From assembly GCA_050943595.1 (NCBI GenBank), contig JBMNPM010000001.1, forward strand, positions 112,794 to 176,793: a stretch of DNA of 64,000 nucleotides, given 5' to 3'. The stretch comes from Thermoleophilia bacterium. GTDB lineage: Bacteria > Actinomycetota > Thermoleophilia > RBG-16-64-13. Below, piece by piece: positions 17,044 to 62,201 of the stretch (positions are counted from its first letter, which is position 1; every line of letters starts with the position of its first letter). The translations under genes were made by a program, and so were the position numbers. The notes below the pieces were generated by a model that made no database searches, was not told where the DNA came from, and worked only from the letters and a program-made list of their open reading frames with translations.

Positions 17044-17884
17044 TTGCTATATCACCCCGCACCCGCCCATCGTGGTCCCCGAAGTAGGGGGAGAAGAAGT
17101 GGCGCAGGTGAATGCCACCTATCAGGCTCTACGTACGCTGGGCCGCAGAGTGGCTCTGCTTGAACCGGACACCATCGTAGTGTTGTCTCCCCACAGCCCT
17201 ATGGCGCGCTTTGGGATGGGTGTGTCATTGGCCTCGTCCTTTCGAGGTTCGCTGGTTCACTTCCGGGCACCCCAGGTACGTCTTGAGGTGGCGGCCGACG
17301 TGCAGGTAGCCCGGGCCATCAACGACGATGCGGTCGCTCGCGGCATACCCATGGCTGTGACGGCATCGCCTGGGACCACTATGGATCTGGATCACGGAGC
17401 CATGGTCCCTCTCTATTTCTTGACCGCTGATTTGACGCGCCCGTACAAGCTGGTGTTGTTGTCCTTCTCGCATCTGAGCCTTGAGGAACACGTTCGCTTC
17501 GGCCGGATCATAGGACGGGTGTTGATGGCGAGTTCGGCCGGGATCGTGTATGTGGCAAGTGGCGATCTGAGTCATCGCCTCTGCCAGGGGGCTCCGGCCG
17601 GCTTCGATCCCCGGGGGGCGGATTTTGACCGGGCGGTGACCACTTTCTTTGCGGCGGGAGACTGGGAAGCGCTGCTGAGTATTGAACCGGGGACGGTGGA
17701 CGCGGCCGGAGAATGCGGTTACCGTTCATTGGCTGTGCTCTCCGGCATCATCGAGACGGTCACCGGCGCCGGTGACCGCACAGAGAACCATCTTCTCTCC
17801 TATGAAGGACCTTTTGGGGTGGGCTATTTGGTGGGGGAGATCAACATCATGAACGCAGATCCGCAAACGGAGAGTGTCCCATGA
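17030..17884 (+). CDS. LigB/Memo-superfamily protein (AmmeMemoRadiSam system protein B position; class III extradiol dioxygenase-like)
   Basis: 'ITPHPPIVVPE' and 'ASGDLSHRL' motifs. 14-nt overlap with the radical SAM gene and 4-nt overlap with the AMMECR1 gene. Confidence 0.65.
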   Translation: MTLLSCYITPHPPIVVPEVGGEEVAQVNATYQALRTLGRRVALLEPDTIVVLSPHSPMARFGMGVSLASSFRGSLVHFRAPQVRLEVAADVQVARAINDDAVARGIPMAVTASPGTTMDLDHGAMVPLYFLTADLTRPYKLVLLSFSHLSLEEHVRFGRIIGRVLMASSAGIVYVASGDLSHRLCQGAPAGFDPRGADFDRAVTTFFAAGDWEALLSIEPGTVDAAGECGYRSLAVLSGIIETVTGAGDRTENHLLSYEGPFGVGYLVGEINIMNADPQTESVP

Positions 17885-38036: not shown

Positions 38037-39356
38037 GTGGCGGCGAACCGCCGGTTCAGTGTAGTCGTAGTCGGTGGAGGTGCTCGGGAGCACGCGATCG
38101 TGCGGGCTCTGGCCAAGAGCCCGCGGGTGGGGAGGCTCCTCTGTGCGCCGGGGAATGCTGGGATCGCTGAGGAGGCAGAGGTGGTGGCTATCGAAGCCGA
38201 TGACCTCTCCGGCCTCGTCGGCCTAGTCGAGCGCGAAAAGATCGACCTCACGGTGGTCGGCCCCGAGGCTCCGCTTGTGGATGGGCTGGCCGACCGGTTG
38301 CGTGCACGGGGCTTTGCCGTATTCGGGCCCGGAGCCGCCGGAGCCCGGCTGGAGGGCTCCAAGGCCTTTGCTAAGCAGATCATGGAGGCGGCGGAGGTCC
38401 CCACCGGTCGCGCACAGGTGTTCACGGATCATCAGAGTGCCTTGGAGTTCCTCGGCACCACGAGGGTGCCCGTGGTTATCAAAGCCGATGGCCTGGCGGC
38501 CGGTAAGGGTGTCGTCGTAGCACAGACGCGCGAAGAGGCCGAGACTGCCTTGGCCGCCTGTTTCGTTGAGCGCCGTTTCGGGGAGGCGGCCGATACCGTG
38601 CTCGTGGAGGAGTTTCTCGAGGGAGAGGAAGTCTCCCTGCTGTCTTTCGTCAGTGGGGAGCGGATACTGCCTCTGGCTCCTGCCCAGGACTACAAGCGGG
38701 CTCTCGACGCTGATGCTGGTCCCAACACAGGCGGCATGGGGTCGTATTCTCCTGTGCCTGTGGTGGACGACGCGTCATACCAGGAGTTGGTGGAGGGCAT
38801 AATCCGTCCTACCGTAGCCGAACTCAAACGGCGGGGGATCGACTATCGTGGAGTGCTCTACGCGGGATTGATGCTCACCTCTGCAGGTCCCAAGGTGCTG
38901 GAGTTCAACTGCCGGTTCGGTGATCCCGAGACTCAGGCCCTCCTCTCTCGTCTCCGTTCCGATCTCTTTGAGTACCTTTGGGCGGTGGCACATGGTGACG
39001 CCTTGCCGGCGGCGGTCGAGTGGAGCGAGGGGCCGGCCGTTGGTGTGGTCATGGCTTCGCGCGGATATCCTGCCACGAGTTCGAAAGGCGACGTCATCAG
39101 TGGTCTGAGCGAGGTGCACGACCTCGAAGACGTGGAGGTTTACCACGCTGCGACCAAGAAGGTGGATGGTTCGCTGGTCACCAGCGGGGGTCGTGTGCTC
39201 ACCGTGACCGGACTAGGGGCGACCTTTGCCGAGGCTCGGGCCCGAGCCTACGCTGCGGTGGCGGCTATCGAGTTCGCCGGTGCCCAGTATCGGTCGGATA
39301 TCGCACTTCGAGCCGAGGAGTGGGAAGGCCGCGGCGCTGCTTCCAACCCACGTTGA
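38037..39356 (+). CDS. purD: phosphoribosylamine--glycine ligase
   Basis: '[12 protein letters not shown]' and an ATP-grasp domain. GTG start at 38037 with a GGGAGG RBS. The ORF-track start at 37953 overlaps purA. Confidence 0.88.
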
Positions 39357-46812: not shown

Positions 46813-49200
46813 GTGAGCGGATCTCAGCTCCTTTTCTATATTGGTATATCCGTCAGTGTCGTCATCTGCGGGGTTCTGGCGGCGATGGGATTTCGGCAAC
46901 GTAGGCGATTCGGCGGATTGCTCTTCGGTTTGTTGCTGAGTTGGGGGGGCGCTTGGTCCCTGCTCTCTGGACTCGAGATCGCCACCACCGATTTCGAAAT
47001 CAAAGTGATATTGGCCAAGTTGGAGTACTTTCCCATCACAACGTTGCCGGTGCTGTGGTTTCTGTTCGCCCTCAACTACAGCGGAGTCCGTTCGATGAAG
47101 CGGATCATCCTCGTCTTGCTCTCCCTACTCATCATCCCTTGTATCACTTTCTTCTTGGTGCTCACCAACGAATGGCACCACCTCATCTGGACCACGGTCT
47201 CCCTCATCGATATGAGTGGCTTCTCAGTACTCGATTGCTCATATGGGCGATGGTTCTGGGTCCATACCGTGTATTCGTACGCCTTGCTCATACTGGCTAC
47301 TGTGTACCTCTTGAGAGCTGCGTATGGGCTCCCGATGCTCTATAGACGGCAGGCTTCCCTCCTAGCACTAGCCGCCGTCATCCCGCTGATCGCCAGTTGG
47401 ATCACTGTGTACCTGGCGCAGCAGGGGGCAGTCTTGGATCTGACCCCCTTCGCTTTTGTGTTGACGGGGATCTTTCTCTGGCTGAGTACGAAGCGCTTTA
47501 AACTCCTCGCCGTCATGCCTACCCTGGTGCCACTTGCCCAAAGCGAAGTATTGGAGATTATGAACGACGGGGTGATCGTTTTGGACCAGGGGGCCAGGGT
47601 GCTGAGTGTCAACCCAGCGGCGGGCACTCTCCTGCAGAAGAAGTCGACAGAGATCGCCGGACAACACGTCGGGGAGCTCCTGGGGCCGGCGGCAGTTCAT
47701 CACTTGACGGGAGAGACGGTGAGCGGGCAGTTTCAGATAGAACTGGGAGACTCAGGCGCGAGGCGGACGTACGATGTGTTGGTCTCGCCGCTCGAATTGG
47801 GCTGGGGCCGGGGGCGAGGGAACGTATTGGTGTTGCGCGATATCACCGAGTATAAAAAATTCGAAGCACGACTGGAACACCAAGCCCTCCATGACTATCT
47901 TACAGGGTTGGCCAATCGCGACCTGTTGCTGGATCGCATCCAGCATGCGTTTTCCCGTCGGCGACATGCGCAGGGTACGTTCTACCTGCTCGCCTTCGAC
48001 ATCGACGACTTCAAAGACGTGAACAACACGCTTGGTCACGCGGAAGGCGATCGTCTCCTGCGCGAAACGGTGGCTCGTATCCAGCACTGCTGTCCGGCAG
48101 CAGCTACATTCGCCCGATTGGATGGCGATGAGTTCGCACTATTCCTTGAAGATATTCCCGATGACGAAACAGCGGATCAGGCGGTTGCACAACTGCTCAC
48201 CACGGTACAGGGTTCCGGTACCGGATCACGAGACGAGCTCCAGTTCACTGTAAGCGTTGGTGTGGCCAAGACCGAGGGACATATGGAGCCGGATGAGCTA
48301 TTGCGTCAAGCCGACGCGGCCATGCATGCTGCAAAAGAGGCCGGTAAGAACAGGGTCCGCCGTTTCGACTCTGATTTGGACGCGTTTTTGCGGAGGCGCG
48401 CACGCCTGGGAGTCGATCTCAAGCAGGCACTCGTTGATTCTGATCTGGTGGCGTACTACCAGCCCATTGTCTCCCTTGCTACGGCGGAGATCGTGGGCGG
48501 AGAGGCGCTGGTGCGCTGGCAGCATCCGGAACTGGGTCTGCTCATGCCCAACGACTTCCTCGATATCGCTGAGGAAGTCAATCTGATGACTTCCATCGAC
48601 CGTGCCGTCCTCTCGGCAGCGTGCCGTGACGCTGTGCAATGGCCATGCGCGGCGCTGGGGAAGCGCTTGTTCGTGAGCGTGAATCTATCCCGGGCTCAGC
48701 TGCTGAACCCTGAGTTGCCGCGTCATGTGGAAACGGCTCTGCGGGATTCCGGCTTCGATGCGCCTCAGCTGCTTCTGGAGGTGACCGAGAACACCCTCAT
48801 TGGCGACCACTCGATATTCATCCGTCGTTTGGCTGATCTACAGAAGCAGGGGGTGCGCATCGCCATCGATGATTTTGGCGTGCACTATGCTTCGCTTCGC
48901 TACCTCAGGAGTCTTCCTGCCCAGATCGTCAAGTTGGACCGGTCGTTCGTCACTGATCTCACGGTGGACGATTGCTCACGGCACGTGACACGCGTGATCA
49001 CCGAATTGGGGGTGGAACTGGGCCTCGAAATCATTGCGGAAGGCATCGAGACGGCAGAGCAATGGAGGCTGCTGCATGAGCTCGGTTGCCCCTTGGGCCA
49101 GGGATATCTGTTCGGGCGGCCACAGCCCCTTGCTGAGTTCATGGAGCTGCTTGCATCGTATTCCGGCGCGGACGGGCTGCGCATCCCGGGTAAGCCTTAG
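46813..49200 (+). CDS. signalling protein: N-terminal 7TM sensor (HisKA_7TM-like) - PAS - GGDEF (degenerate 'DGDEF') - EAL
   Basis: TM-rich N-terminal region, a PAS-like segment, 'RLDGDEF' in the cyclase domain, and EAL motifs 'LLLEVTEN' and 'DDFG'. Confidence 0.85.
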   Translation: MSGSQLLFYIGISVSVVICGVLAAMGFRQRRRFGGLLFGLLLSWGGAWSLLSGLEIATTDFEIKVILAKLEYFPITTLPVLWFLFALNYSGVRSMKRIILVLLSLLIIPCITFFLVLTNEWHHLIWTTVSLIDMSGFSVLDCSYGRWFWVHTVYSYALLILATVYLLRAAYGLPMLYRRQASLLALAAVIPLIASWITVYLAQQGAVLDLTPFAFVLTGIFLWLSTKRFKLLAVMPTLVPLAQSEVLEIMNDGVIVLDQGARVLSVNPAAGTLLQKKSTEIAGQHVGELLGPAAVHHLTGETVSGQFQIELGDSGARRTYDVLVSPLELGWGRGRGNVLVLRDITEYKKFEARLEHQALHDYLTGLANRDLLLDRIQHAFSRRRHAQGTFYLLAFDIDDFKDVNNTLGHAEGDRLLRETVARIQHCCPAAATFARLDGDEFALFLEDIPDDETADQAVAQLLTTVQGSGTGSRDELQFTVSVGVAKTEGHMEPDELLRQADAAMHAAKEAGKNRVRRFDSDLDAFLRRRARLGVDLKQALVDSDLVAYYQPIVSLATAEIVGGEALVRWQHPELGLLMPNDFLDIAEEVNLMTSIDRAVLSAACRDAVQWPCAALGKRLFVSVNLSRAQLLNPELPRHVETALRDSGFDAPQLLLEVTENTLIGDHSIFIRRLADLQKQGVRIAIDDFGVHYASLRYLRSLPAQIVKLDRSFVTDLTVDDCSRHVTRVITELGVELGLEIIAEGIETAEQWRLLHELGCPLGQGYLFGRPQPLAEFMELLASYSGADGLRIPGKP

Positions 49201-49345
49201 GAGGCGACGACTATATCTCTCCACCAAGGGATGATGCTCTCGCTCTGACAGTGTCCACTGATGACAGCAGGCAGTCACCGGTATCGTCGATCGCCGGTAC
49301 TATAATGCTAGGAGGCTGCCGGCTCACACGACGTACTCAAGCGGG

Positions 49346-51757
49346 GTGGAAGTGCTACCTCTTCTTATAGCGGGCATCGTGGTTTGCTTGGCCTTGGCGA
49401 TCGTGGGATATCACCAGCGCGACGAGCCCGGGGGGAAACTCTTCTGCGCCATGATGAGTTATATGGCCTTCTGGGCGGTGCTCCACACGCTGGAGATGGC
49501 ACCTTTCCCCCTGGATATCAAGCTCATGTTCGTGGAGCTTCAGTATTCACCGATCGTCACGTTGCCGGTGCTGTGGTTCCTGTTCGCGCTTATCTACACG
49601 GGCGCTCGGCCGGTCAGAATGGGGCCTATAGCTGCGCTGTTGGCGTTTCTTCCACTTGTCAGTTTTCTTCTTGTCATCACGAACGACTGGCACCATCTCG
49701 TTTGGTCGAACCCCAGACTGGTCACGGTGGCCGGCTTTGAGCTCATCCGCTATGACTTCGGATGGTGGTTCTGGCTGCAGAGCGGATACGGCACCATCTT
49801 GCTTGCAGCGGCGGCCGTTCTCTTCATGAGAGTTGCATACAGACTTGTATCTATGTATCGCAAAGAGGCCGTTCTACTGATGCTGGCAGCCGTGCTTCCG
49901 ATGGTGGTGAGGTTGGCGACCATCTTCCTTGCTGCAAAGGGAGGAGCTATGGTCGACGCTTTGTTGCTCGCGTACGTGCTCAGCGGGGCGTTGCTCTGGT
50001 TCGGCACTAAGGGTCTTGAGCTCCTCAAGGTTATGCCCATCCTGGTGCCGGTTGCCCAGGGTGTAGTACTCGAGACAATGAGGGACGGGGTGATCATTTT
50101 CGATGATAACGCTCATGTGCTGATTCTTAATCCCGCGGTGGAAGCGATTCTTGGTAGGGATGCCGAGGGGCTCATTGGTAGTCACGTGGATGAGTTTTTA
50201 GGCCCTGCTGTGCTGCATCGCTTGGCCGGCTCAGATATCAGTTCGCACTTTGAGATCGAATTGGGGGGGGAAGGTGATGGGCGTGTGTACGAAGTCTCCA
50301 CTTCCTCCCTAGACTTAGGCTGGGGGCTTGGATTAGCTAATATCTTGGTGCTACGGGATATCACCGACCGCAAGCACTTCGAGACGCAACTCGAGCATCA
50401 GGCCCTCCATGATCCCCTCACGGGCCTGGCAAACCGCGCGCTTCTCATGAATCGGATTGAGCAGGTCTTGGCCGAACGCAAGCATAGGCTTGGGGCTGTG
50501 TATCTCCTCTACTTCGACATCGACGACTTTAAACACGTGAACAACACGGTGGGTTACGTAGAAGGCGATCGGCTGCTGCGTGAGCTCGTGGGGCGGATGG
50601 AGAACTGCTGCCCTTCCGCTGATACAATCGCCCGCTTGGGGGGCGACGAGTTTGCAGTGCTTCTCCAGGGCGTGGCCGACGATGAGGCTGCGGAGCAATC
50701 CGTTAAGCGCATCCTCGATTGTATTCGTGAGTCTGGCGAGGATACGCTCGGTCACTTTCACGTGACGGCCAGTGCGGGAGTGGCCAGAGCGGTGGATGTG
50801 GTCAAGCCATCGGAGTTGCTTCGCCAGGCGGATGTGGCTATGTATGCGGCAAAGGCTGCCGGTAAGAACCGATTCCGTAGGTTCACGCCCGATATGGATC
50901 GCCACCTGCTCCGGCGCGTACGTCTTGAGGCCGACCTGAAGCAGATGCTCTGGGATACAGACTTGGTGGTGTACTACCAGCCGATAGTGTCACTGGAGAC
51001 CGCGAGGGTCATAGGAGCGGAGGCGCTGGTGCGTTGGCAGCACCCGCAATTGGGGATTCTCATGCCCCGGGACTTCATGGGCATCGCCGAAGAGATCGGC
51101 CTTGTGACCGCCATCGACCGCGCGGTCCTTCGTACGGCGTGTCGCGACGCCGTCCAGTGGCAGCCGTATGCAGACTCTGCAGAGGGGCTGGTTGTAAGCT
51201 TAAATTTTTCTCGCGCTCAGATTCTTAGTGATGATCTGTTCGATGATGTACAGAAATCTCTGAAAGATGTTGGTCTGGAGGAGCGGCATCTGCTCATTGA
51301 GGTTGCTGAGAGCGCTTTTATCGGAGATCAGGTGTTGTTCTCAGAGCGTCTGACCGAGATCCGTCAAAAGGGCATTCGTATAGCCATCGATGATTTCGGG
51401 GTGCACTACTCCTCTCTCAGATACCTCCGCAGTCTGCCTGCACAGGTCATCAAGCTCGACCGCTCCTTTATAGCCGACATCGTCGTAGATGAACGGTCTC
51501 GCAGCATCGTGCATGCGGTCACCAAACTGGGTACTGCACTTGACCTGGACGTGATCGCGGAAGGCATCGAGACGGTAGAGCAATGGAGGCTGCTGTATGA
51601 GCTCGGTTGTCCCTTGGGCCAGGGGTTCTGCGTTGGTCGATCGTTGCCGGCGCAGGATCTGATCGAATATCTTCGGGGCCGGGCGGGACGTGCCGGTGCG
51701 CTGATGTTGGAAAAAATCGGCTCTGTGACCACTGTCAATGCGGGCAGGGGCAGATAG
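49346..51757 (+). CDS. paralogous 7TM-PAS-GGDEF-EAL signalling protein (intact GGDEF)
   Basis: Same architecture as the upstream gene. 'RLGGDEF' is intact. EAL motifs 'LLIEVAES' and 'DDFG'. Confidence 0.85.
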   Translation: MEVLPLLIAGIVVCLALAIVGYHQRDEPGGKLFCAMMSYMAFWAVLHTLEMAPFPLDIKLMFVELQYSPIVTLPVLWFLFALIYTGARPVRMGPIAALLAFLPLVSFLLVITNDWHHLVWSNPRLVTVAGFELIRYDFGWWFWLQSGYGTILLAAAAVLFMRVAYRLVSMYRKEAVLLMLAAVLPMVVRLATIFLAAKGGAMVDALLLAYVLSGALLWFGTKGLELLKVMPILVPVAQGVVLETMRDGVIIFDDNAHVLILNPAVEAILGRDAEGLIGSHVDEFLGPAVLHRLAGSDISSHFEIELGGEGDGRVYEVSTSSLDLGWGLGLANILVLRDITDRKHFETQLEHQALHDPLTGLANRALLMNRIEQVLAERKHRLGAVYLLYFDIDDFKHVNNTVGYVEGDRLLRELVGRMENCCPSADTIARLGGDEFAVLLQGVADDEAAEQSVKRILDCIRESGEDTLGHFHVTASAGVARAVDVVKPSELLRQADVAMYAAKAAGKNRFRRFTPDMDRHLLRRVRLEADLKQMLWDTDLVVYYQPIVSLETARVIGAEALVRWQHPQLGILMPRDFMGIAEEIGLVTAIDRAVLRTACRDAVQWQPYADSAEGLVVSLNFSRAQILSDDLFDDVQKSLKDVGLEERHLLIEVAESAFIGDQVLFSERLTEIRQKGIRIAIDDFGVHYSSLRYLRSLPAQVIKLDRSFIADIVVDERSRSIVHAVTKLGTALDLDVIAEGIETVEQWRLLYELGCPLGQGFCVGRSLPAQDLIEYLRGRAGRAGALMLEKIGSVTTVNAGRGR

Positions 51758-51886
51758 TTCATGCAGCTCCTGAGTAAGAGCATAGGGCAGCGCTACCGGC
51801 CACCGGTTGCCGGCCACCGGTGGGATTGAGCCCGTATGTCACGTTGACACCCGCTAATGCGAGGGCTAAAATCGGACCTCCCACGT

Positions 51887-51959
51887 GGGCCGTTAGCTCA
51901 GTTGGTAGAGCACCGGACTTTTAATCCGTTGGTCGCTGGTTCGAATCCAGCACGGCTCA
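51887..51959 (+). tRNA. tRNA-Lys (anticodon TTT)
   Basis: Cloverleaf with acceptor GGGCCGT/ACGGCTC, D-arm GCTC/GAGC, anticodon loop CTTTTAA, and T-arm GCTGG-TTCGAAT-CCAGC. Very similar to E. coli tRNA-Lys. CCA is not encoded. Confidence 0.9.
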
Positions 51960-51965
51960 TTAGAA

Positions 51966-51995
51966 AAAAGCCCCGCAGAAGCGGGGCTTTTTTCT
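51966..51995 (+). terminator. rho-independent terminator after tRNA-Lys
   Basis: 'AAAAAAGCCCCGCagaaGCGGGGCTTTTTT' hairpin followed by a T-tract. Confidence 0.85.
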
Positions 51996-52069
51996 ATCAG
52001 GGCGCTTTTTGGTCAAATCGATGTCCGGGCTGTGTGCCGGAGCGGCGCCGGATGTCTGCGGGCGGAACC

Positions 52070-52504
52070 TCAGGCTTTGACCGCCTCATATGCCTTGGCG
52101 AGCGCTGCGCTGATTGCGTCGGGCGTGGCGTCGGCGTAAGCGATGTGGTAGAAGCTAAACGCGGGGAACTTCTTCTCCAGTTCTCTTCCAAGAGCCCCCA
52201 GCCTTTCGGTCTGCTCCTGTCTTTCGGCGTCGCGATTGATGGTTATGCTCACCATAGCCAACTTCTTGCCGCTCTTGAGGTAGTCGGTATGATTTAGCAG
52301 CCACCAGTACTTCTGGATGCACTGAGACGGAAAGTCGCGCTCATACTCGATCGCCACGATGCCTCCGGGAAACTCGAAGGTCTCATCCGGCTTTGGCGAG
52401 CAGGACAGCTGGGTGCTGATCAGATCCTGCTCAAGGGCGTGTGACGATGGGTTATGCGGCATCAGTGACGAACGAACGATGTTTTCGGCTTCTTTCAGTT
52501 CCAC
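52070..52504 (-). CDS. hypothetical protein (144 aa)
   Basis: GTG start with a GGAGG RBS 6 nt upstream. The upstream promoter has a TATACT -10 and a 2x12-bp direct repeat. No recognisable domain, though 'GIVAIEYERD' is faintly PD-(D/E)xK-like. Confidence 0.45.
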   Translation of the reverse strand: MELKEAENIVRSSLMPHNPSSHALEQDLISTQLSCSPKPDETFEFPGGIVAIEYERDFPSQCIQKYWWLLNHTDYLKSGKKLAMVSITINRDAERQEQTERLGALGRELEKKFPAFSFYHIAYADATPDAISAALAKAYEAVKA

Positions 52505-52557
52505 CTACGACCTCCAAGGGGCTGACAAGGGTACACGCTCACAACGATATGTCAGAG

Positions 52558-52587
52558 AGTATAGTAAAGACAAATGTAAAGACAAAT
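52558..52587 (-). promoter_or_regulatory. promoter of the 52070-52504 gene: TATACT -10 preceded by 2x12-bp direct repeat ATTTGTCTTTAC
   Basis: The minus strand reads ATTTGTCTTTAC ATTTGTCTTTAC TATACT, ~55 nt upstream of the GTG start. Confidence 0.45.
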
Positions 52588-53026
52588 ACCTTCGGCTATT
52601 CTCGACCGAGTATTCACGGCGATCTGCGGTTTAGATTTGGGCTTTTGCCGGTCTTTTTCGACGGACTGAAGCAGCGAATTCCAGGCCGGGGCTCGTTTGG
52701 CCGCCGGTGCTGAGCCCATCAGGTCCGGCCTGCTGGGCTCCGGACTATCCGTTCCTCAAGCACGGCTCGGCCATTCTCATACTCCAGTCCGGCTTTCCGG
52801 GGCCCATAGTCACCCAGAGAAAACCCGGCGGATCGGGGAACGGTCGAGTTTCTCATCGAAGCGGGGCACTATTCCTGCTTCTAAGTAATAAATAAGCAGT
52901 CTAATTATACGGTATTACCAACGGACCGACAACCGTTCAGGGTCATTGTTGGAAGAAAAGGGTCTTCACGTTTTGGAGGATAATCGTCAGGTTGATCCTT
53001 GCGACGTGGATGGATGGTCGAATTTG

Positions 53027-53296
53027 ATGCACACCGTGGCTTATATACTCTACGCGGCACTGCTGATTTATAGTTGGTTGATCATCGCCCGCGCCGTGCT
53101 CTCGTGGTTCCGGGCGCCGTATGGCGGTCCCGTTTATCAGATACAGAGAGCGCTTTATGCGTTGACAGAGCCCTATCTGCGCCTCTTCCGTCGTATTATC
53201 CCCACGGCTCGTCTTGGTTCCGTGGGGCTCGACCTGAGTTCGCTGGTGGGACTGTTTGTTCTCTACGTTGTCATCCGGCTGCTGACCAGGATTTGA
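53027..53296 (+). CDS. yggT: YggT-family membrane protein
   Basis: 'AYILYAALLIYSWLIIARAVLSWF...PYL' matches the YggT repeat. The start is uncertain (ATG 53027, GTG 53007, or ATG 52946). Confidence 0.65.
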   Translation: MHTVAYILYAALLIYSWLIIARAVLSWFRAPYGGPVYQIQRALYALTEPYLRLFRRIIPTARLGSVGLDLSSLVGLFVLYVVIRLLTRI

Positions 53297-53487
53297 GGGG
53301 CGGTTGGGACATGTCAAGCACGCAGAGTGTCGTGCGCAGCTGTGGTTGGTGCTATGGCAGTGCGGATGGGGGCATCTCTACTTTGCGAAGGCCAAGCGAA
53401 GCTGGGGCGGTAGGATGTAAGGTGAGGTTGCGTATGCCGGCCACAGCCCCTCAGGCTGTGGCCGGCACGCCGCACCAAGGTCGGACT

Positions 53488-54684
53488 CTAGTGCCGGCCG
53501 AGTTCCACCAGGCGCCGAGCAAGAAGCAGCGCATCCACCGGCCAGAGAGACGTGGGCCGGGGGCGGTGTACTCCGGGTCGCCCTGGTTCCGGGCGGCAGG
53601 AGAGGATGGTTTCGCGCCAGCGGGTTGGTATGGCATCGATCCCGTGGACGGCCCCCAAGAGCGCACCGGCGATGGCCGCGTTGGTGTCGGTGTCACCGCC
53701 GCGCATGACGGTGTCCGACACACCCTCCTCTAGGCTGGGGGCATGCAGCAGCTGCCAGAAGGCGTTGCACAAGGCGATGAGCACCCAACCCTGCTGATTC
53801 TCGAAGTCCTCTGGAGGCTCGGTGGCGGCCAGTTCGAGGCAGTCGCGTATTGCGCTGTGCACGGAGGTCGTACTGTCGGGCTGAGTGTGATCCTCTTCGG
53901 TGGCCCAGTTCATCACGAACCGGTAGACCTCCTCCGCCTGCGCACCGGTGGCTACGGCATGGGCTATGGCTACGACGAAGGTTGCACTGGCGTCCCGGCA
54001 GACTCGGTTGGGATGAGTGATGGCTGCATCCTGTCTCGCCAGGTCGGCAGCTGCAGCCGGGGACAGGGTATGGGCGTAGATGCCCAGGGGGCTCACGCGC
54101 ATGAGGGCGCCGTTGGCCTGGCTCTCCCGCGCTGCTGTCGACCTGGCTGTCGCTGCTACGGAGGCCGGGTCTTCTCCACGCTTGAGGGCAGCTACAGCCG
54201 GCATTAGAGCCTGAGTTGTGGCGGCTCCATAGTCGAAGGGGGGTGACGCGTACCAGTGAGCGTAGGCGACCGCCGCCTCGCTCGGATCAAATCGGCCGGC
54301 CCGTATGATGGAGCGCGCCAACATGAGTGCCATCTCTGAGTCGTCGGTCGGCTGTCCAGCGATGAGACGGTGAAGGCCGCCATCGGCCAGGTCACGGATG
54401 CCGTTGGGGTAATGCGTGCGGATGGACGATGTGCTCTGGAGCTCGACGAGGCTTCCGAGAGAATCGCCTGCCAGTTGTCCCAGCATACAGCCTTGAGCGC
54501 GTCCGATGACATCATGTGCCGCCTCCGGTTCGCTCTCGTAGTCTTCCAGCAGCGGGTATAACGTCTCTATATCTGTCTCGATATCGTTTGGGTTGCTCAC
54601 CACGGCGACTCCTTTGTGTTCGATCGGGCCCAGCGGGGAGGCCTGCGCGGCGCTGGCGTGCCGCGCAGGCCTCAATCTTCTCAC
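53488..54684 (-). CDS. ADP-ribosylglycohydrolase-family protein with ~60-aa N-terminal extension
   Basis: 'GQLAGDSLGSLVE', 'ADGGLHRL...TDDSEMAL' and 'GGDTDTNAAIAGALLGAVHG' ARH motifs. Its ATG overlaps the stop of the Fe-S subunit gene (ATGA). Confidence 0.75.
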   Translation of the reverse strand: MRRLRPARHASAAQASPLGPIEHKGVAVVSNPNDIETDIETLYPLLEDYESEPEAAHDVIGRAQGCMLGQLAGDSLGSLVELQSTSSIRTHYPNGIRDLADGGLHRLIAGQPTDDSEMALMLARSIIRAGRFDPSEAAVAYAHWYASPPFDYGAATTQALMPAVAALKRGEDPASVAATARSTAARESQANGALMRVSPLGIYAHTLSPAAAADLARQDAAITHPNRVCRDASATFVVAIAHAVATGAQAEEVYRFVMNWATEEDHTQPDSTTSVHSAIRDCLELAATEPPEDFENQQGWVLIALCNAFWQLLHAPSLEEGVSDTVMRGGDTDTNAAIAGALLGAVHGIDAIPTRWRETILSCRPEPGRPGVHRPRPTSLWPVDALLLARRLVELGRH

Positions 54685-55499
54685 TCAGCCAGGGGGATAT
54701 CGCCCAGATTCACGTCTTTTTCGGTGGTGAGACCCGAGAAGGTCTTGGTAGCGTAGCCGTCGGCAGCGATGGTCAACTCGTAGGCCTCTTCGGCCAGTCC
54801 GTGGAACCAGAAATCGCCGAAGTCGTCGGTGACGGCGGTCTGGGGTGCGGACCCGTCCGGTCCGTGCAGGGTGCAGACGGCTCCGATCACCACCTCTTCT
54901 TCCACCGGATCGTAGACCGTGCCGGCGATGAACTTTTTAGGCATGTTGAGGTAGTAGACCAGGGGCTCAGTGTCGCACTCGGGCTTTAGGGTCTCAGCCT
55001 CGGCGATTTCAGCGGCGAAGTCCTCCGCTTCCCCGAACTGTATGGCCTCGGTGGGGCAGGCATCGACGCACCGCGGCACCTTCCACTCGCCGCTATCAAG
55101 GAGATGGGCGCAGCCGGTGCACTTCTGGGCCAGGTTGAGGTTCTCGTTGAAGAATATGGCGTCGTGAGGGCAGGCGTCCACACAGGCCTTACAGCCGGTG
55201 CACTTCTGCGGGTCGATGATTACCAGTCCATCGTCCCGCCGGTAGATAGCCCCCTCAATGGGGCAGATGGGCATGCAGGGGGCCAGGTGGCAGTGCATGC
55301 AGGGCTGGGGTACGTAGTGCATCTGTACTTTGGGTACCGTGCCTCGTATGTGCTCGGTCAGCCGCATCCAGAACTGTCCCGTGTCGGGCTGGGGCTTGGC
55401 GATCGGTGACCAGTCGTTAGCGACGTGTTCGTCTTTGCATACGATCTGACAGTTGTAGCAACCGTTGCAGAGCCCTATGTCGATCACAAACGCTTTCAT
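54681..55499 (-). CDS. 4Fe-4S cluster beta subunit of a molybdopterin oxidoreductase, with C-terminal carboxypeptidase-regulatory-like (Ig-fold) domain; pyrogallol hydroxytransferase small-subunit-like
   Basis: Multiple CxxCxxCxxxCP ferredoxin motifs. A C-terminal ~80-aa beta-sandwich segment 'GTVYDPVEEEVVIGAVCTLHGPDG...ELTIAADGY'. 272 aa. Confidence 0.75.
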   Translation of the reverse strand: MKAFVIDIGLCNGCYNCQIVCKDEHVANDWSPIAKPQPDTGQFWMRLTEHIRGTVPKVQMHYVPQPCMHCHLAPCMPICPIEGAIYRRDDGLVIIDPQKCTGCKACVDACPHDAIFFNENLNLAQKCTGCAHLLDSGEWKVPRCVDACPTEAIQFGEAEDFAAEIAEAETLKPECDTEPLVYYLNMPKKFIAGTVYDPVEEEVVIGAVCTLHGPDGSAPQTAVTDDFGDFWFHGLAEEAYELTIAADGYATKTFSGLTTEKDVNLGDIPLAE

Positions 55500-58121
55500 C
55501 TAAGCCTTCTCTCCTTCGATCCAGGCGTCGAAACGCAGCCCGGCGGCGTGATCGTATTCTCGGGCGAAGGCTTCCGGGTGGTCTCGGCGCCACTCGTCCC
55601 ACTCCTCCCCCCTGACTTTCTGCACATCCACCAGGTAGCCACTAGTGGCTTGGCCTACCGCGTTCCGGGAGGTCAGCCCGTTGGGAGCGATAGCGTTGAT
55701 GGCGCCGCCACGATCCACACGCTCGCTGATGGGATCGTGGCGCGCCCCGTGGTCGATGTAGACAACTCTGGGCATTATTCTCTCCCAGACACGGGCCCCG
55801 GCAAGGACGATGCCTCGCTCGTTGAAGACCTTGACGACGTCACCATCCTTGATGCCTCGTTCGGCGGCGTCGCGGGGGTTGATCCACAGGGGCTCATACT
55901 TGTAGCCATCGAAGCCCAGCACCTTACACGTGGGTATCTCGCGGGTCCAGGTTATGTCGTCACACTGGGAGTGTGTGCGCCACCGGCCGTGGTTGGACAT
56001 GAGGAGCAGCGGGAACATGTCCGCCCGCTCACTGGAGATGCGCTCGTCGTGGGTCTCGGTTCGTTCGATCCACTTGGGATACGGTGGTCTCTCAGCATCG
56101 TAGGGGAAATGCTGGGCCAGGGCTTCGGAATAGAACTCAAGCTTGCCCGTAGGCGTGGGAAGCGGATGGGCCACCGGGTCGTCGTGGAAGTCTCGCAGAC
56201 CCGGTGTGTCGTCCTCCCAATCATGGGCGGTGGGGAAGACGAAGTACTTCTTGTCCTCAAACTCGTCCCAGGTTATGAAGTCGGTGACTTCCATATCCTG
56301 GAACACCTGCATCTGCAGGTCGCGGGTGGTCATGCCTTCCGTGAATTGCTCCCCTAGACCCAACTTCTTGGCTACTTCGAGGACCACCTCGTAATCGCTC
56401 TTGGACTCGCCGATGGGAGCGATGGCCTGCTCCTGGATCATAATGCTCTGGAAGTGCGGACCTTGTCTGGTGTTGGTGACGATGTCCTCGACCTCTAAGG
56501 TGGTGTTTACCGGTAGGATGAGATCGGCATAGAGACAGTCGTTCTCCAACCAGGGGTGCTGGGCTACGATGCACTCGATCTTGGGGCTGCGGTAGGCCTC
56601 GATAGTCCAGTTGCCGTGGTTCCAGCAGGTGATGCGGCAGGGAGTGTCGGTCCATATCATGTGGATCTCAGTGCCGCCGTCTTCCTTCGGGATGGGGTAG
56701 GTGTATTTGATGAACTGGTCATCGGTGTCTGATTCCTGCCCGCCGCTGCCCATGAAGGTGAGGGGCGGACGGAGAATGGCCTCCTGGATGAGGGTCTTGG
56801 GGATGAGTTGTTTGCCCCAGGCGTCGGAGCTGGTCCGTACTGGGGTCCGTATGCGTTCGCTCAGCGCCGGGTTGAAAAAACGTGCGCTCTTGATGCCCTC
56901 GGCCCGAGGCATGCCGAAGTAGGTTATCTGGCATTGGTGTACGCCCGGGGCGCCCAGCCCCTGCATGCCTAACAGTATGCATTCCAGACGCCCAGGTTCA
57001 TGTGAGAAGGGGCCCCTTATCATGGAGCCGCCGAAGTAGTGCACGATGGACGTGACCTGCTTGGCAAACTTGCGGGCCAGAGCTTTGATGGTCCACGGGG
57101 GTACGCCGCATTTTTTCGTGGCCCAAGATGGTGTCTTGGCGACGCCGTCCTCCTTGCCGAGGACGTAATCCGCCACCTTGTCCATGCCCACGGCATGAGT
57201 GGCCACATACTCCTTGTCCCACGTCCCCTCCGTCAGCCACACGTGGATGATGGCGAGCTGCAGGGCTGCGTCGGTGTTGGGCAAGATGGGGATCCACTTG
57301 CCTGCGTGGATGGCGGCCCCGTAGTTGAGGTCCGGGCAGATATAGACCTGTTCGATCCCGGCTCGGGTCCAGAACTGACAGATACGGGTGGCGTACTGCC
57401 CCGTGAATCCCCACGGTGTCGTCTCCGGGTCACCGCCCCAAAAGAGCAGTAGTTCGCTGTGCTCAGTGATGTCTTTGATGAGATTGTTGGCGGGTGACAT
57501 CATGCCTTGGAACCCCTGGCCCCACACGTGCTTGGCACCCCAGTACCAACCCTCCCAGCTGTCCGGATTCCTCACCTGCTGTGTGAATCCGCCCATCAGG
57601 TCGAGGAGGTGTGCGGAATGACCGTGGGGGGTGTGGATGGTCAGACACTCCCCGTGACCGTCTCCCTGCACTAGGACTCCCAGTGGACCGTATTGCTCGT
57701 GGACCCTGCGAATCTCGGCTGCGATGATGTCGGTGGCTTCGTCCCACGAGATGCGTTGGTACGTGCTCTTCCCGCGATTCTGTGGGTTTCGTTCTCCCTG
57801 TGGGTTCCAGTCCACCCGTTTGAGGGGGTACTTGATGCGATTGGGGGAGAAGGTTCTCTTCTTGTAGGCGAGTGAGAAGGGTGAGGGGAGGGATTTCATC
57901 AATGGCTGCAGCGTTTCGCCGTTGCGCCGCATGGTCCAAGAATTTAAGTGTTCGCGGTCATACTTCCAGTCGTAGTGGAAGGGCCTGATCCGGACGGCCT
58001 TGCCGTCCTTCACGTCCACGGCGCACTCGCCGCCGCCGCCCAGCATGCCGCCGAGGGCTAGAGACCTGAAGACGGTCTTATCCGGCCTGACGTCGGGTAG
58101 TTTCTGCTCTTGGTCGCTCAT
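55500..58121 (-). CDS. molybdopterin-dependent oxidoreductase catalytic subunit, pyrogallol-phloroglucinol transhydroxylase large-subunit-like (no Tat signal, no N-terminal Fe-S motif)
   Basis: 873 aa. 'RISWDEATDIIAAEI' and 'NPDSWEGWYWG' are motifs of the DMSO-reductase-family transhydroxylase branch. Its stop TAG directly abuts the beta-subunit ATG. Confidence 0.7.
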   Translation of the reverse strand: MSDQEQKLPDVRPDKTVFRSLALGGMLGGGGECAVDVKDGKAVRIRPFHYDWKYDREHLNSWTMRRNGETLQPLMKSLPSPFSLAYKKRTFSPNRIKYPLKRVDWNPQGERNPQNRGKSTYQRISWDEATDIIAAEIRRVHEQYGPLGVLVQGDGHGECLTIHTPHGHSAHLLDLMGGFTQQVRNPDSWEGWYWGAKHVWGQGFQGMMSPANNLIKDITEHSELLLFWGGDPETTPWGFTGQYATRICQFWTRAGIEQVYICPDLNYGAAIHAGKWIPILPNTDAALQLAIIHVWLTEGTWDKEYVATHAVGMDKVADYVLGKEDGVAKTPSWATKKCGVPPWTIKALARKFAKQVTSIVHYFGGSMIRGPFSHEPGRLECILLGMQGLGAPGVHQCQITYFGMPRAEGIKSARFFNPALSERIRTPVRTSSDAWGKQLIPKTLIQEAILRPPLTFMGSGGQESDTDDQFIKYTYPIPKEDGGTEIHMIWTDTPCRITCWNHGNWTIEAYRSPKIECIVAQHPWLENDCLYADLILPVNTTLEVEDIVTNTRQGPHFQSIMIQEQAIAPIGESKSDYEVVLEVAKKLGLGEQFTEGMTTRDLQMQVFQDMEVTDFITWDEFEDKKYFVFPTAHDWEDDTPGLRDFHDDPVAHPLPTPTGKLEFYSEALAQHFPYDAERPPYPKWIERTETHDERISSERADMFPLLLMSNHGRWRTHSQCDDITWTREIPTCKVLGFDGYKYEPLWINPRDAAERGIKDGDVVKVFNERGIVLAGARVWERIMPRVVYIDHGARHDPISERVDRGGAINAIAPNGLTSRNAVGQATSGYLVDVQKVRGEEWDEWRRDHPEAFAREYDHAAGLRFDAWIEGEKA

Positions 58122-60090: not shown

Positions 60091-60273
60091 TGTGGATAGC
60101 TGGAGTAGTCCGTGCTGCGGGTGTGTTTGGATCTTTTCTCTCTGCCGAGGGCGGGGTCTCTCGAGTTCTTTCAGCTGGAATTTGAGAGTGGGTCGGCACT
60201 TCGACTTCGCGGCGCCATCCTGCTGAGGTGATCAACTCCTACTTGTCACCAACCGGTCAGTTCTCGGTCATTA

Positions 60274-60305
60274 TTGACAATAGCAGGTATAGTACTTACT
60301 ATACC
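60274..60305 (+). promoter_or_regulatory. sigma70-like promoter (TTGACA 60274-60279; TACTAT 60297-60302) overlapped by 20-bp perfect palindrome GGTATAGTACTTACTATACC (60286-60305)
   Basis: Read directly from the sequence. Spacer is 17 nt. The palindrome covers the -10 element. Confidence 0.55.
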
Positions 60306-60344
60306 TGTCTTTATCAAACAAGTGACTTTGAGGAGTGTCTACCC

Positions 60345-60617
60345 ATGGCCGATGAGATATTCAGCTTTGAACCAGCAGTTGTTCCGAAGGCCCAGCGCGG
60401 TTTCAGGAGAAGTAAGTACCTGGCTACCGTCGAGGCAATCGACCAGTTCTTGAAGGAAAATCCAAACGAAAACGCAGTTAAGATCGAATTAGGTGATGTG
60501 AGCAGCAAATCTGCCTACGCCAGCTTTCGTACAGTGATAGCGAGGGAATATCCTGACAGCATCCGTTTGACTCAGCGGGGTGGAGATCTATACATTGAGA
60601 GGCGTAGAGACGAATAA
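60345..60617 (+). CDS. small hypothetical protein (90 aa) in low-GC self-contained cassette
   Basis: ATG 60345 with a GAGGAG RBS. Own promoter TTGACA-17-TACTAT with a palindromic operator. Followed by a 20-bp-stem hairpin. Confidence 0.55.
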   Translation: MADEIFSFEPAVVPKAQRGFRRSKYLATVEAIDQFLKENPNENAVKIELGDVSSKSAYASFRTVIAREYPDSIRLTQRGGDLYIERRRDE

Positions 60618-60674
60618 AGAGGCGACCCGGCCAGCAGAATTTAGAGACGGCGTGTAGTGTGGCTCCTCTAAGAA

Positions 60675-60718
60675 AGCCGTCGCACCTGCACTGCTTCTGC
60701 AGTGCAGGTGCGACGGCT
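60675..60718. terminator. 20-bp perfect-stem hairpin between convergent genes (bidirectional terminator candidate)
   Basis: AGCCGTCGCACCTGCACTGC-ttct-GCAGTGCAGGTGCGACGGCT. No U-tract. Confidence 0.5.
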
Positions 60719-60734
60719 GAACGCCATTTGTGGA

Positions 60735-62201
60735 CTAGAAGCAGAGCTTTCCAGGATTCATGACGTTGTTTGGATCGAAGATACTCTTAACCTTGCGAAG
60801 CGCAATGGTGGTGGCGGCATCCCTTCTATAGGCTGTGTCCGCCCAGGGGCCGTATGGACGGGAGAAGAAGGCCCCTCGAGCCGATAGCGTGTGGACCGCC
60901 GCTTCCGACAGGGCTGCAACTTGTGCTGTTTCCTTGGCATCTGTCTTGTCAAAGAAAATATTGAATTCGCAATGGTAGTTGACGCCCTGCACAAGTGGTT
61001 GCAGGTAGATACCGATGTCGGAGACCTTTTGGTCATGCTTGACGGCAGTCTCTTCCATCACGCAGATGAGTTCGTTGAGTTTCTCGTATATGGTGATGAA
61101 GAAGATGTCGGTGCTGGAGCTGCCGCCCTTGCTTTTCCAGTATGAATCGGTGGAGGGTTCGTGTAGGGTCTTCATCAACTCGAAGGCGGAAACGGTTCCC
61201 ACCGATCGAAGGGGGTTTACTCTGATGGACTGCGCGACGGTGGCGATGTCCTTCTGTAGGTAGGCGATCTTCTCTTCGGGGAAGTAGTTGGTCCCCGAGA
61301 TGGTGTAGAAAAGGATCCAGCGTGGTAGTTCCGACTTGAGTCGTTCGTAGTCGGCAGGCCAATCTCGTGCCATGATGCGGGCCAAATTGGTATCGTTCAG
61401 CAGCAGGCAGTCATCGGCCCAGCGATTCCTGATGAGCCAGTGGGTGAACTCAAGCAGATTGTGGAGCTTGTCTGAGCCGACGAGATAGGGCTCCTCAATG
61501 GTGGGCAGATGTTCGCACCTGACTGTCGCCCAGGTTACGATACCCATGGTTCCCTGGGAACCTTGGATGAGCCTGAGGAAGTCGGCCTGGATGGGGCCGG
61601 CCGCTTCGTTTTGAGCCGCGCCGATGGCCCACTGCTCATCGAGAGTGCCGGGGCCGGCGGCTGAGCCCGTCTTGAAGGTGTCACCGGTGCCGTAGACCAC
61701 CTGGGTGCAGGCCAACGGGTCGGAGATGTCCCAGTGGTACTTGGGCATGATCACCGGCTCTCTCTCCAGTGTGCTGCCTACCACCGACTTGGTCGGGCGT
61801 GGGAGAAGGGGTAGGTTCAATCGCAGTCCGGCATCCCGCGCAGCAGGTATCAACTCCCCAAAGGTGACGCCGGGTTCGACCATGACTATACGGTGCTCGA
61901 GGTCGAGCCGGACGATCTTGTTCAATCTGCGCATGTCGACGATGACAGCGCCGCCGACACTGGGGACCGTGTCACCCCTATAGTGAGGGGGGCCGGAGCT
62001 GACGGGGATGAGGGGGGTGGCCGAGGTATTGGCCCAATTGATTATCTGTTGGACCTCCTCCGTATCCTTGGGTCGCACAACGCACCGGGGCGTAATGGGA
62101 TGGACGAAACTCTCATCGGCCGCGTATCCACTCAGGATATCGGGGTCGTCGGATACATTCTCTGCACCAACAATGTCGGCCAACGCTTGCTTTTCTAACA
62201 T
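60735..62201 (-). CDS. FAD-linked oxidase (GlcD/D-lactate dehydrogenase-like, FAD_binding_4 plus C-terminal domain)
   Basis: 488 aa with FAD-binding PCMH-type domain motifs and a C-terminal 'DPNNVMNPGKL'. Confidence 0.75.
   Translation of the reverse strand: MLEKQALADIVGAENVSDDPDILSGYAADESFVHPITPRCVVRPKDTEEVQQIINWANTSATPLIPVSSGPPHYRGDTVPSVGGAVIVDMRRLNKIVRLDLEHRIVMVEPGVTFGELIPAARDAGLRLNLPLLPRPTKSVVGSTLEREPVIMPKYHWDISDPLACTQVVYGTGDTFKTGSAAGPGTLDEQWAIGAAQNEAAGPIQADFLRLIQGSQGTMGIVTWATVRCEHLPTIEEPYLVGSDKLHNLLEFTHWLIRNRWADDCLLLNDTNLARIMARDWPADYERLKSELPRWILFYTISGTNYFPEEKIAYLQKDIATVAQSIRVNPLRSVGTVSAFELMKTLHEPSTDSYWKSKGGSSSTDIFFITIYEKLNELICVMEETAVKHDQKVSDIGIYLQPLVQGVNYHCEFNIFFDKTDAKETAQVAALSEAAVHTLSARGAFFSRPYGPWADTAYRRDAATTIALRKVKSIFDPNNVMNPGKLCF

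Follow-up and report, generated by a model that had tools for sequence, protein, structure and literature searches.

Organization of the locus

The window, by which we mean the whole 64-kb stretch of DNA that was analysed, contains a gene for a 90-aa protein that is the single open reading frame (ORF) between a CHRD gene and a gene for a flavin adenine dinucleotide (FAD)-linked oxidase, and whose product is identical to the hypothetical protein ACOX8V_00885 that NCBI lists for a Thermoleophilia metagenome-assembled genome (MAG). A previous sequence-only reading of this DNA had described the region around the gene as a self-contained single-gene unit, and this description holds: the gene has its own promoter, ribosome-binding site (RBS), conserved coding sequence and terminator-like hairpin, and an inverted repeat overlaps the promoter. 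We describe here this unit, the family of its product, and the extent to which the inverted repeat may be an operator through which the gene controls itself. The features of the unit are as follows:

60274-60279, + strand: -35 hexamer TTGACA, from a consensus scan in which TTGACA-17-TACTAT scores 10/12
60297-60302, + strand: -10 hexamer TACTAT, from the same consensus scan, after a 17-nt spacer
60284-60307, both strands: dyad with perfect 11-bp arms, CAGGTATAGTA (60284-60294) and TACTATACCTG (60297-60307)
60274-60317, both strands: extended imperfect symmetry, with 21-nt arms (60274-60294 and 60297-60317) that match at 81%
60330-60335, + strand: Shine-Dalgarno sequence GAGGAG, 9 nt before the ATG at 60345
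60345-60617, + strand: coding sequence of 90 aa, with its ATG at 60345 and a TAA ending at 60617 (NCBI ACOX8V_00885)
60675-60718, both strands: GC-rich hairpin, with arms at 60675-60694 and 60699-60718 that are 20/20 complementary and a 4-nt loop

The near-consensus promoter (10/12), the GAGGAG RBS and the hairpin with a perfect 20-bp stem are all as the sequence-only reading had given them. Matches of at least 10/12 to the sigma-70 consensus occur at three sites in the 64 kb, with 2.95±1.9 expected by chance, so their count is at chance level; one of the three lies directly before a tRNA-Lys gene and another is the one described here, whose spacing to an RBS is sensible. From the usual distance of around 7 nt to the -10 hexamer, transcription would start near 60309, leaving a leader of approximately 36 nt. 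This leader, as RNA, folds no better than shuffled sequences, and the idea of a conserved RNA structure in the 5′ leader was rejected, with a consensus fold of -3.55 kcal/mol and one covarying pair. Conversely, an alignment of the upstream regions showed that GGAGG is kept in all relatives, the AGG core being invariant.

The hairpin lies between convergent genes, the 90-aa gene and the FAD-oxidase gene (60735-62201, - strand), 17 nt past the stop of the latter, and its sequence is unique in the window. The intergenic fold that includes it reaches -59.9 kcal/mol (z = -5.1). It is not followed by a run of T on the + strand, it continues with TTTCTT on the - strand, and it was not listed by a terminator scan; the TTTCTT stretch suggests that the hairpin equally serves the convergent FAD-oxidase gene. 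Related loci and contigs are designated here with L numbers and members of the protein family with P numbers. In L009, the closest relative (81% protein identity), a different GC-rich hairpin occupies the same place, and downstream hairpins were also read in L042 and L044; the presence of differing hairpin sequences at the same place in relatives supports a terminator role. The hairpin at 60675-60718 is, by its sequence and position, a probable bidirectional terminator. The only matches in Rfam were sub-threshold, to microRNA hairpins, and fell on the terminator stem.

A conserved protein family with relatives in phages

The ORF is almost certainly a real protein-coding gene under purifying selection. 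Its close homologues (n = 12) are 87-90 aa long, show 60-81% identity and have 34 invariant positions. In comparisons with these relatives, the proportion of synonymous differences (pS) was 0.70-0.92, which is saturated or nearly so, and that of nonsynonymous differences (pN) was 0.09-0.24; among the less diverged pairs, the ratio of nonsynonymous to synonymous substitution rates (dN/dS) was 0.05-0.33. This conservation and these ratios settle favourably the question, raised in the sequence-only reading, of whether the ORF carries a coding signal. In all the loci examined the gene stands alone, preceded by an AT-rich region of its own and followed by a hairpin.

Searches of Pfam, PHROGs, NCBIfam, PADLOC and the PDB sequences, with the single protein as well as with alignments of 23 and 45 members, returned nothing consistent, in agreement with the earlier view that the protein belongs to no recognisable family. 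An exhaustive profile search among 1.84 billion representative proteins found 16, and profile iteration with a widened alignment gathered 282 clusters, mostly of 79-84-aa proteins from Actinomycetota MAGs, none of which has a name or a Pfam domain. A close relative is present in only 3 of 185,579 species genomes, all of them Actinomycetota MAGs (a Gaiellales MAG, Actinobacteria RBG_16_64_13 and an uncultured Actinomycetes MAG). Members of the family thus occur in Actinomycetota of the Thermoleophilia/Gaiellales type and, more distantly, in uncultured tailed phages of around 100 kb. The phages in GenBank and the plasmids in PLSDB gave two weak matches only, one inside a 612-aa ORF of P2-EC46 (E 0.03) and the other inside a gamma-glutamyltransferase gene (E 0.9), and both were treated as spurious. 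Six family queries retrieved no relatives among the IMG/VR viral contigs, and nothing was found on the family in the literature. The family is new to curated databases while being, at the level of the system, of an ordinary kind.

The distant members P0026, P0038 and P0023 (30-37% identity) are encoded in uncultured phage contigs of about 100 kb and 32-38% GC, within a region of replication and tRNA-repair genes that includes those for a CCA-adding enzyme, PTH2, an RNA ligase, DnaB and a primase. Comparison of the chromosomal clade with the phage clade using hhalign gave a probability of 99.7% (E 4e-26), and by their sequences the two clades are clearly homologous. Likewise, an integrase fragment, an HTH_17 excisionase-like gene and an S24 peptidase are found in the element that encodes member P0045. 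It is very probable that the family is phage-related.

A five-gene block is common to the phage contigs (L014:4677-8587, L019:4318-8596 and L045:2784-6633, and also L015-L018 and L020-L023). Its genes encode, successively, a Cys-rich protein of 580-641 aa; a JAMM/JAB peptidase of 234-270 aa, in which the motif E...HSHx7Sx2D is readable and which scores 23.2 bits against Pfam Prok-JAB; a ThiF-like E1 of 218 aa; the small family member; and a protein of 86-96 aa with a C-terminal hydrophobic helix. The E1 and JAB pair, which lies in the replication and tRNA-repair region of a phage of lytic type, may represent a system for conjugation or adenylation encoded by the phage. The family protein itself does not have the features of a ubiquitin-like modifier, its predicted fold not being a beta-grasp and its C-termini being variable and without GG, and the link to E1 and JAB is seen in one phage lineage only. 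We regard as quite improbable a broader scenario in which this undescribed phage-derived family would have an alpha/beta nucleic-acid-binding fold of a new variety and would serve the phage adenylation or conjugation system as a partner, as a substrate or as the subunit that targets DNA, later domesticated in Thermoleophilia as a stand-alone, promoter-symmetric and self-controlled gene.

Base composition of the cassette

The low-GC stretch of around 490 bp that had been noticed by eye is confirmed by calculation. The segment 60230-60720 has 49.5% GC, compared to 60.0±3.0% (standard deviation) over all 491-bp windows of the 64 kb, and is the lowest-GC stretch of its size; only 0.2% of the windows are equally low, and all of them overlap the locus. 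Additionally, the GC content at third codon positions is 53% for the 90-aa ORF and 64-78% for five neighbouring genes. In every homologous locus examined, GC content drops by about 8-12 points relative to the flanks, both in the ORF and in the region upstream of it, so that the compositional mark of a horizontally acquired cassette is found at this locus and, with the same offset, in all its relatives. The low GC content of promoter and ORF is a trait of the family wherever it is found, most simply explained by a phage or other foreign ancestry; because synonymous sites are saturated between lineages, it is maintained, and is not the fading trace of a single transfer.

Predicted structure of the protein

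An AlphaFold prediction with 45 sequences reached a predicted local distance difference test (pLDDT) score of 84.4, with an N-terminal arm (residues 1-23) at a pLDDT of around 70. In the second, and better, of two models, the arm is followed by a helix (24-38), a strand (44-47), a second helix (54-68) and a beta-hairpin (73-78 and 81-86). Conserved residues were found in the arm, with the motif F6-x-F8-x-P10-A-x-x-P14, and in a basic cluster, R18-G-x-R-R-S-K-Y25, as well as in helix 2 (K55-S-A-x-x-S-F-R62) and in the hairpin (R74-L-x-Q-R-G79-x-D-L-Y-I-E85). The arm motif, as F-x-F-x-P-A-x-V-P, has the widest conservation of all the features of the family, phage members included.

The nearest PDB structures to the better model were the winged-helix protein F-112 of SSV1 (PDB 2vqc; E 0.078, template modelling (TM) score 0.42-0.50), a kleisin C-terminal domain, Cdt1-C and HlyU. 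Small viral and plasmid winged-helix proteins, such as F-112 and the ArsR-type HlyU, are of similar size and viral association, and their helix-strand-helix-beta-hairpin ("wing") elements are common with the predicted fold of the 90-aa protein. A dyad overlapping a promoter is the usual target of winged-helix dimers. Nevertheless, the protein differs from F-112 and HlyU in that identity is 14%, the canonical helix 2 is missing and there is no match to any winged-helix Pfam family; the similarity is not significant, since 2vqc, at the E value above, was the best Foldseek match and profile searches gave none.

The first model pointed instead to proteins of beta-alpha-beta-alpha-beta-beta topology, the nearest being Alba-RNA, IF3-C, Smr (TM 0.58) and the DNase-I-like subdomain of RNase E. 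The Alba, IF3-C and Smr domains, which are small and basic (e.g., 3wbm for Alba-RNA and 2zqe for Smr), have the same order of elements if residues 5-8 form a first strand. This model has a 2-residue strand at positions 7-8, its neighbours of this topology being at E 0.16-0.4, whereas the better model has no N-terminal strand. Other differences are that E values are at least 0.02 throughout, that none of the sequence motifs of these domains is present and that no profile matches them. In BFVD, the matches were to uncharacterised phage proteins alone, with E values of at least 1.5e-3.

Nucleic-acid binding is suggested by the two candidate fold classes, which both have this activity, and by the mostly basic character of the family, with a median isoelectric point (pI) of 9.5 and 39 of 45 members above 8; judging from the models, we would put the chances that the 90-aa protein binds nucleic acid at about even. 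The dimeric DNA-binding protein imagined in the sequence-only reading goes further than this fold likeness, which is weak throughout (Foldseek E of at least 0.02).

Symmetry of the promoter

The inverted repeat overlaps the core promoter, and its 11-bp arms cover the -10 and the discriminator. The right arm holds the -10 of the + strand, and the left arm a -10-like hexamer of the - strand, with 13 bp between the arm centres. The extended symmetry takes in a -35-like hexamer of each strand (TTGACA for + and TTGATA for -), the whole promoter being pseudo-symmetric, and a promoter-like site on the - strand (TTGATA-17-TACTAT, 60317 to 60289) scores 9/12. The repeat had been described as a perfect 20-bp palindrome straddling the -10. 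Its position over the -10 is correct, but the repeat is longer than 20 bp, as described above, and it is not perfect, because the central CT (60295-60296) is not self-complementary.

There are 11 inverted repeats with perfect arms of at least 9 bp in the window, compared to 2.0±1.3 expected from Markov simulations, and the promoter dyad is the sole AT-rich one, the other ten being GC-rich. By this measure, the dyad is not a chance feature of the sequence. Long perfect GC-rich palindromes are found, for instance, at 17758-17777 and 39230-39250 (e.g., GGTCACCGGCGCCGGTGACC and GAGGCTCGGGCCCGAGCCT).

No second copy of the dyad, allowing up to 3 mismatches, was found in the 64-kb window, and neither the dyad nor its half-sites are enriched elsewhere in it, occurring at chance level only. 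In the metagenomes of the Joint Genome Institute (JGI) there were 14 exact matches to the 18 specified bases of the dyad, in unrelated loci and before unrelated ORFs; by our own estimate, this is about the number expected by chance for 18 specified bases in that collection. Two unrelated metagenome contigs of around 60% GC contain exact copies of GGTATAGTA-N2-TACTATACC in promoter-like positions (L029:5701-5720 and L032:385-404), in both of which an RBS-like sequence and a start codon follow at a short distance, and these copies are probably independent palindromes embedded in promoters. A common operator core, TAGTAC, was considered as a feature of the family and rejected, as it occurs only in the window, in L009 and in the group of L001, L006 and L007, and not in other relatives.

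A possible autoregulated unit

These features could be combined as follows. The cassette would be a monocistronic unit for a small and strongly conserved protein, expressed from a near-consensus promoter of the sigma-70 type and a strong RBS, with transcription ending at the GC-rich hairpin that it has in common with the convergent FAD-oxidase gene. The product, predicted to consist of a flexible N-terminal arm and a compact helix-strand-helix-beta-hairpin domain, would bind nucleic acid. The dyad over the -10 and the discriminator would be an operator, where a bound dimeric repressor would block RNA polymerase, and the first candidate for such a repressor would be the product of the gene itself, resulting in negative autoregulation. 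Two half-sites around one helical turn apart over a -10 are the classical geometry of a repressor site. The cassette has in common with the classical autorepressed small regulators of phages and plasmids a strong promoter, a dyad over the -10, a single small gene and a foreign composition; unlike them, it has a candidate operator that is not conserved along with the protein, and no DNA-binding family can be assigned to its product. A monocistronic phage-related gene, with a nucleic-acid-binding product and an operator dyad, is as a whole the best explanation that we have for the locus, with a probability of roughly 40%; the self-repression of the gene through the dyad is, as a separate claim, doubtful.

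A number of observations weigh against this explanation. None of about 12 homologous loci has such a repeat near its promoter; no inverted repeat comparable to the dyad was read upstream of the gene in L001, L006-L013, L025, L027 and L042-L044. In L009, the predicted helix 54-68 is identical and the beta-hairpin differs in one residue, yet there is no such dyad, and its upstream region contains only the common spacer motif TAGTACTT together with a repeat that is imperfect and unlike the dyad. Likewise, the main clade keeps a different promoter, TTGATT-17-TATCCT, and a leader of around 80 nt without a dyad. The dyad is therefore not conserved with the protein, which argues against a role as its own operator being a property of the family; the sequence-only reading, which took the palindrome to suggest autoregulation, had itself named its absence from homologous loci as the result that would speak against it. 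Concerning the protein, no Foldseek match of either model to PDB or BFVD had an E value below 1e-3; in the place of H2 in the winged-helix topology (H1-S1-H2-turn-H3-S2-wing-S3) there is a 6-residue loop; the searches of curated families gave no sequence match to DNA-binding families; and the protein of the window is itself near neutral (pI 6.3). Regarding mobility, the window has neither an integrase nor a transposase close to the cassette, the nearest tRNA gene is 8 kb away and without an integrase, and neither flanking direct repeats nor target duplications were found at the cassette. Finally, the symmetry could have another cause, given that the pseudo-symmetric promoter also scores on the - strand.

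Other explanations for the dyad and the protein

This last point leads to the strongest of the alternatives, which we nonetheless consider unlikely: that the dyad is a core promoter in acquired AT-rich DNA whose pseudo-symmetry makes it bidirectional, RNA polymerase being able to bind it in either orientation, with divergent starts around 27 bp apart, and that the protein acts through protein-protein contacts of its N-terminal motif, as a phage-derived accessory or host-modulating factor, and not on DNA. Symmetric bidirectional promoters are reported to be common and enriched in horizontally acquired DNA, with start spacings of up to 29 bp, and sequence symmetry alone can generate them, above all in acquired DNA (Warman et al., bioRxiv 10.1101/2020.01.31.928960). 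As in the promoters of that study, -10- and -35-like elements are found here on both strands of an AT-rich and probably acquired segment; TTGACA-17-TACTAT and TTGATA-17-TACTAT both score, the symmetry reaches both -35 hexamers, and the inferred spacing of the starts falls inside their range of 7-29 bp (10.1101/2020.01.31.928960). The lack of conservation of the dyad in relatives is also consistent with this explanation. However, the commonest class that they describe has overlapping -10 elements and a spacing of 18 bp (10.1101/2020.01.31.928960), whereas here the -10 hexamers are adjacent and the symmetry is much more perfect than a promoter needs. Five perfectly matching bases on the discriminator side (CAGGT/ACCTG), outside of the hexamers, are not required by a bidirectional promoter and are left unexplained by it, and what lies 3′ of the - strand site is nothing plausible, no more than a Pro/Arg-rich ORF of 73 aa overlapping the end of the CHRD gene. 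As for the protein, an action by contacts would agree with the wide conservation of F-x-F-x-P-A-x-V-P up to the phage members, with the position of these members among early and replication genes, beside E1-like and JAB proteins, and with the absence of any match to a DNA-binding family; the mostly basic character of the family, and the fact that its nearest folds all bind nucleic acid, argue otherwise.

Alternatively, the dyad could be the operator for another host transcription factor, encoded elsewhere, that controls the acquired gene only in the lineage of the window. This would account for a dyad that is specific to this lineage in spite of the near identity of helix and hairpin with L009; moreover, the geometry of the dyad would suit many dimeric helix-turn-helix repressors, as known from textbooks, and exact copies of the 18 specified bases precede unrelated ORFs in metagenome contigs. 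Those 14 copies are, nevertheless, close to the chance number as estimated, there is no second copy of the dyad or enrichment of half-sites in the 64 kb, and no candidate regulator gene adjoins the cassette, making this explanation improbable.

It is very unlikely, in turn, that regulating the neighbouring catabolic genes is the dedicated role of the protein, as the sequence-only reading had also contemplated. These genes encode a pyrogallol-hydroxytransferase-like molybdenum (Mo) enzyme, an SDR, the CHRD protein and FAD-linked oxidases, and relatives of the small gene are also found among catabolic and redox genes, with an AhtL-like Mo enzyme near the gene in the window, L013 and L025 and a NicX-like gene preceding it in several main-clade loci. 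Conversely, the neighbours differ widely between close relatives, the members in phages and integrated elements are without such neighbours, neither the dyad nor its half-sites are upstream of any neighbouring gene or enriched in the window, and the regulators that are visible in these clusters are separate MarR or TetR genes.

We give still less credit to the possibility that the dyad functions mainly as RNA, as the hairpin of a terminator for read-through from the CHRD gene that overlaps the next promoter by chance. The segment 60270-60325 does fold as RNA to -17.9 kcal/mol (z = -4.7) and is followed by UCUUUAUC; but the stem is AT-rich, the dyad was not listed by the terminator scan, a nearer terminator-like hairpin with a T-rich tail follows the CHRD stop (60146-60163), and the dyad is in exact register with both -35/-10 pairs, which points to a role in the promoter. 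Lastly, the toxin-antitoxin or addiction-type module put forward in the sequence-only reading matches the cassette in its general look only (the gene is small, AT-rich and acquired, and its promoter is palindromic) and is effectively refuted, since the gene is single here and in all relatives, without a conserved partner, and shows no match to Pfam toxins or antitoxins or to the PADLOC defence models.

Genomic surroundings

The closest relative, L009, has the same FAD-oxidase flank as the window and a different left flank. Immediately to the left of its cassette, after a glycosyltransferase gene, there is a remnant of 68 aa of the N-terminus of an asparagine synthase (AsnB; MCGIAG..., L009:434-640), which marks a rearrangement breakpoint relative to the window. 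The proposal that the cassette was horizontally acquired is made plausible by its atypical composition and by its relatives in phages and integrated elements, and lacks the backing of a mobility signature. That it was inserted between the CHRD and FAD-oxidase genes is only half borne out by the comparison with L009, and no empty site was recovered. A foreign ancestry of the 90-aa gene is thus supported, and a discrete insertion at this site is not demonstrated.

The AhtL-like (pyrogallol-hydroxytransferase-like) molybdopterin enzyme is encoded a few kb from the small gene in three independent loci, namely the window (54681-58121), L013 (L013:4024-7903) and L025 (L025:1136-3796). Its Fer4_11 subunit was called in the window and in L013, in the latter directly upstream of the small gene. 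This proximity may be genome background or a loose association. An ADP-ribosylglycohydrolase gene (53488-54684; Pfam E 1e-65) adjoins the Fer4/Mo-enzyme pair of the window. In L008, the neighbours are CMD and transporter genes. Two other loci have istA/istB genes of the IS21 type around 0.7-0.9 kb 3′ of the small gene (L006:1381-3651 and L010:1236-2435); their small genes are only 77% identical, and the region is prone to insertions. A possible tandem paralogue in L027 was discarded, as the adjacent ORF of 79 aa has no similarity.

The tRNA-Lys gene of the window (51886-51960, within 51844-51990) is preceded by the best promoter match, TTGACA-17-TAAAAT (11/12), and followed by a textbook terminator, AAAAAAGCCCCGC...GCGGGGCTTTTTT. 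We rejected the idea of a genomic island at this tRNA gene, because no integrase was found nearby. Just after it, 52000-53320 is a second stretch of lower GC content (52.6% in 52501-53000), with ORFs of 91-144 aa without Pfam matches, that could be another acquired or a non-coding segment. Further upstream, 46813-51757 contains tandem paralogues of 795 and 803 aa, both with the architecture 7TM-PAS-GGDEF-EAL of cyclic-di-GMP signalling.

Implications

Taken from its sequence, the cassette probably encodes a phage-derived, nucleic-acid-binding small protein expressed from its own strong promoter; autoregulation is possible, with conservation lending it no support. At present, it adds to the list of conserved hypothetical small proteins, with tidy signals for its expression; this is of value for annotation, and no open question hinges on it. 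A protein that did bind its own palindromic promoter would represent a new small DNA-binding family common to deep-branching Actinomycetota and uncultured phages, and the locus would be a compact promoter/operator/terminator unit from a class that has been little studied. Likewise, the low GC content kept across lineages with saturated synonymous sites and the neighbourhood of E1 and JAB genes in phages hint at a phage gene that is recurrently exchanged.

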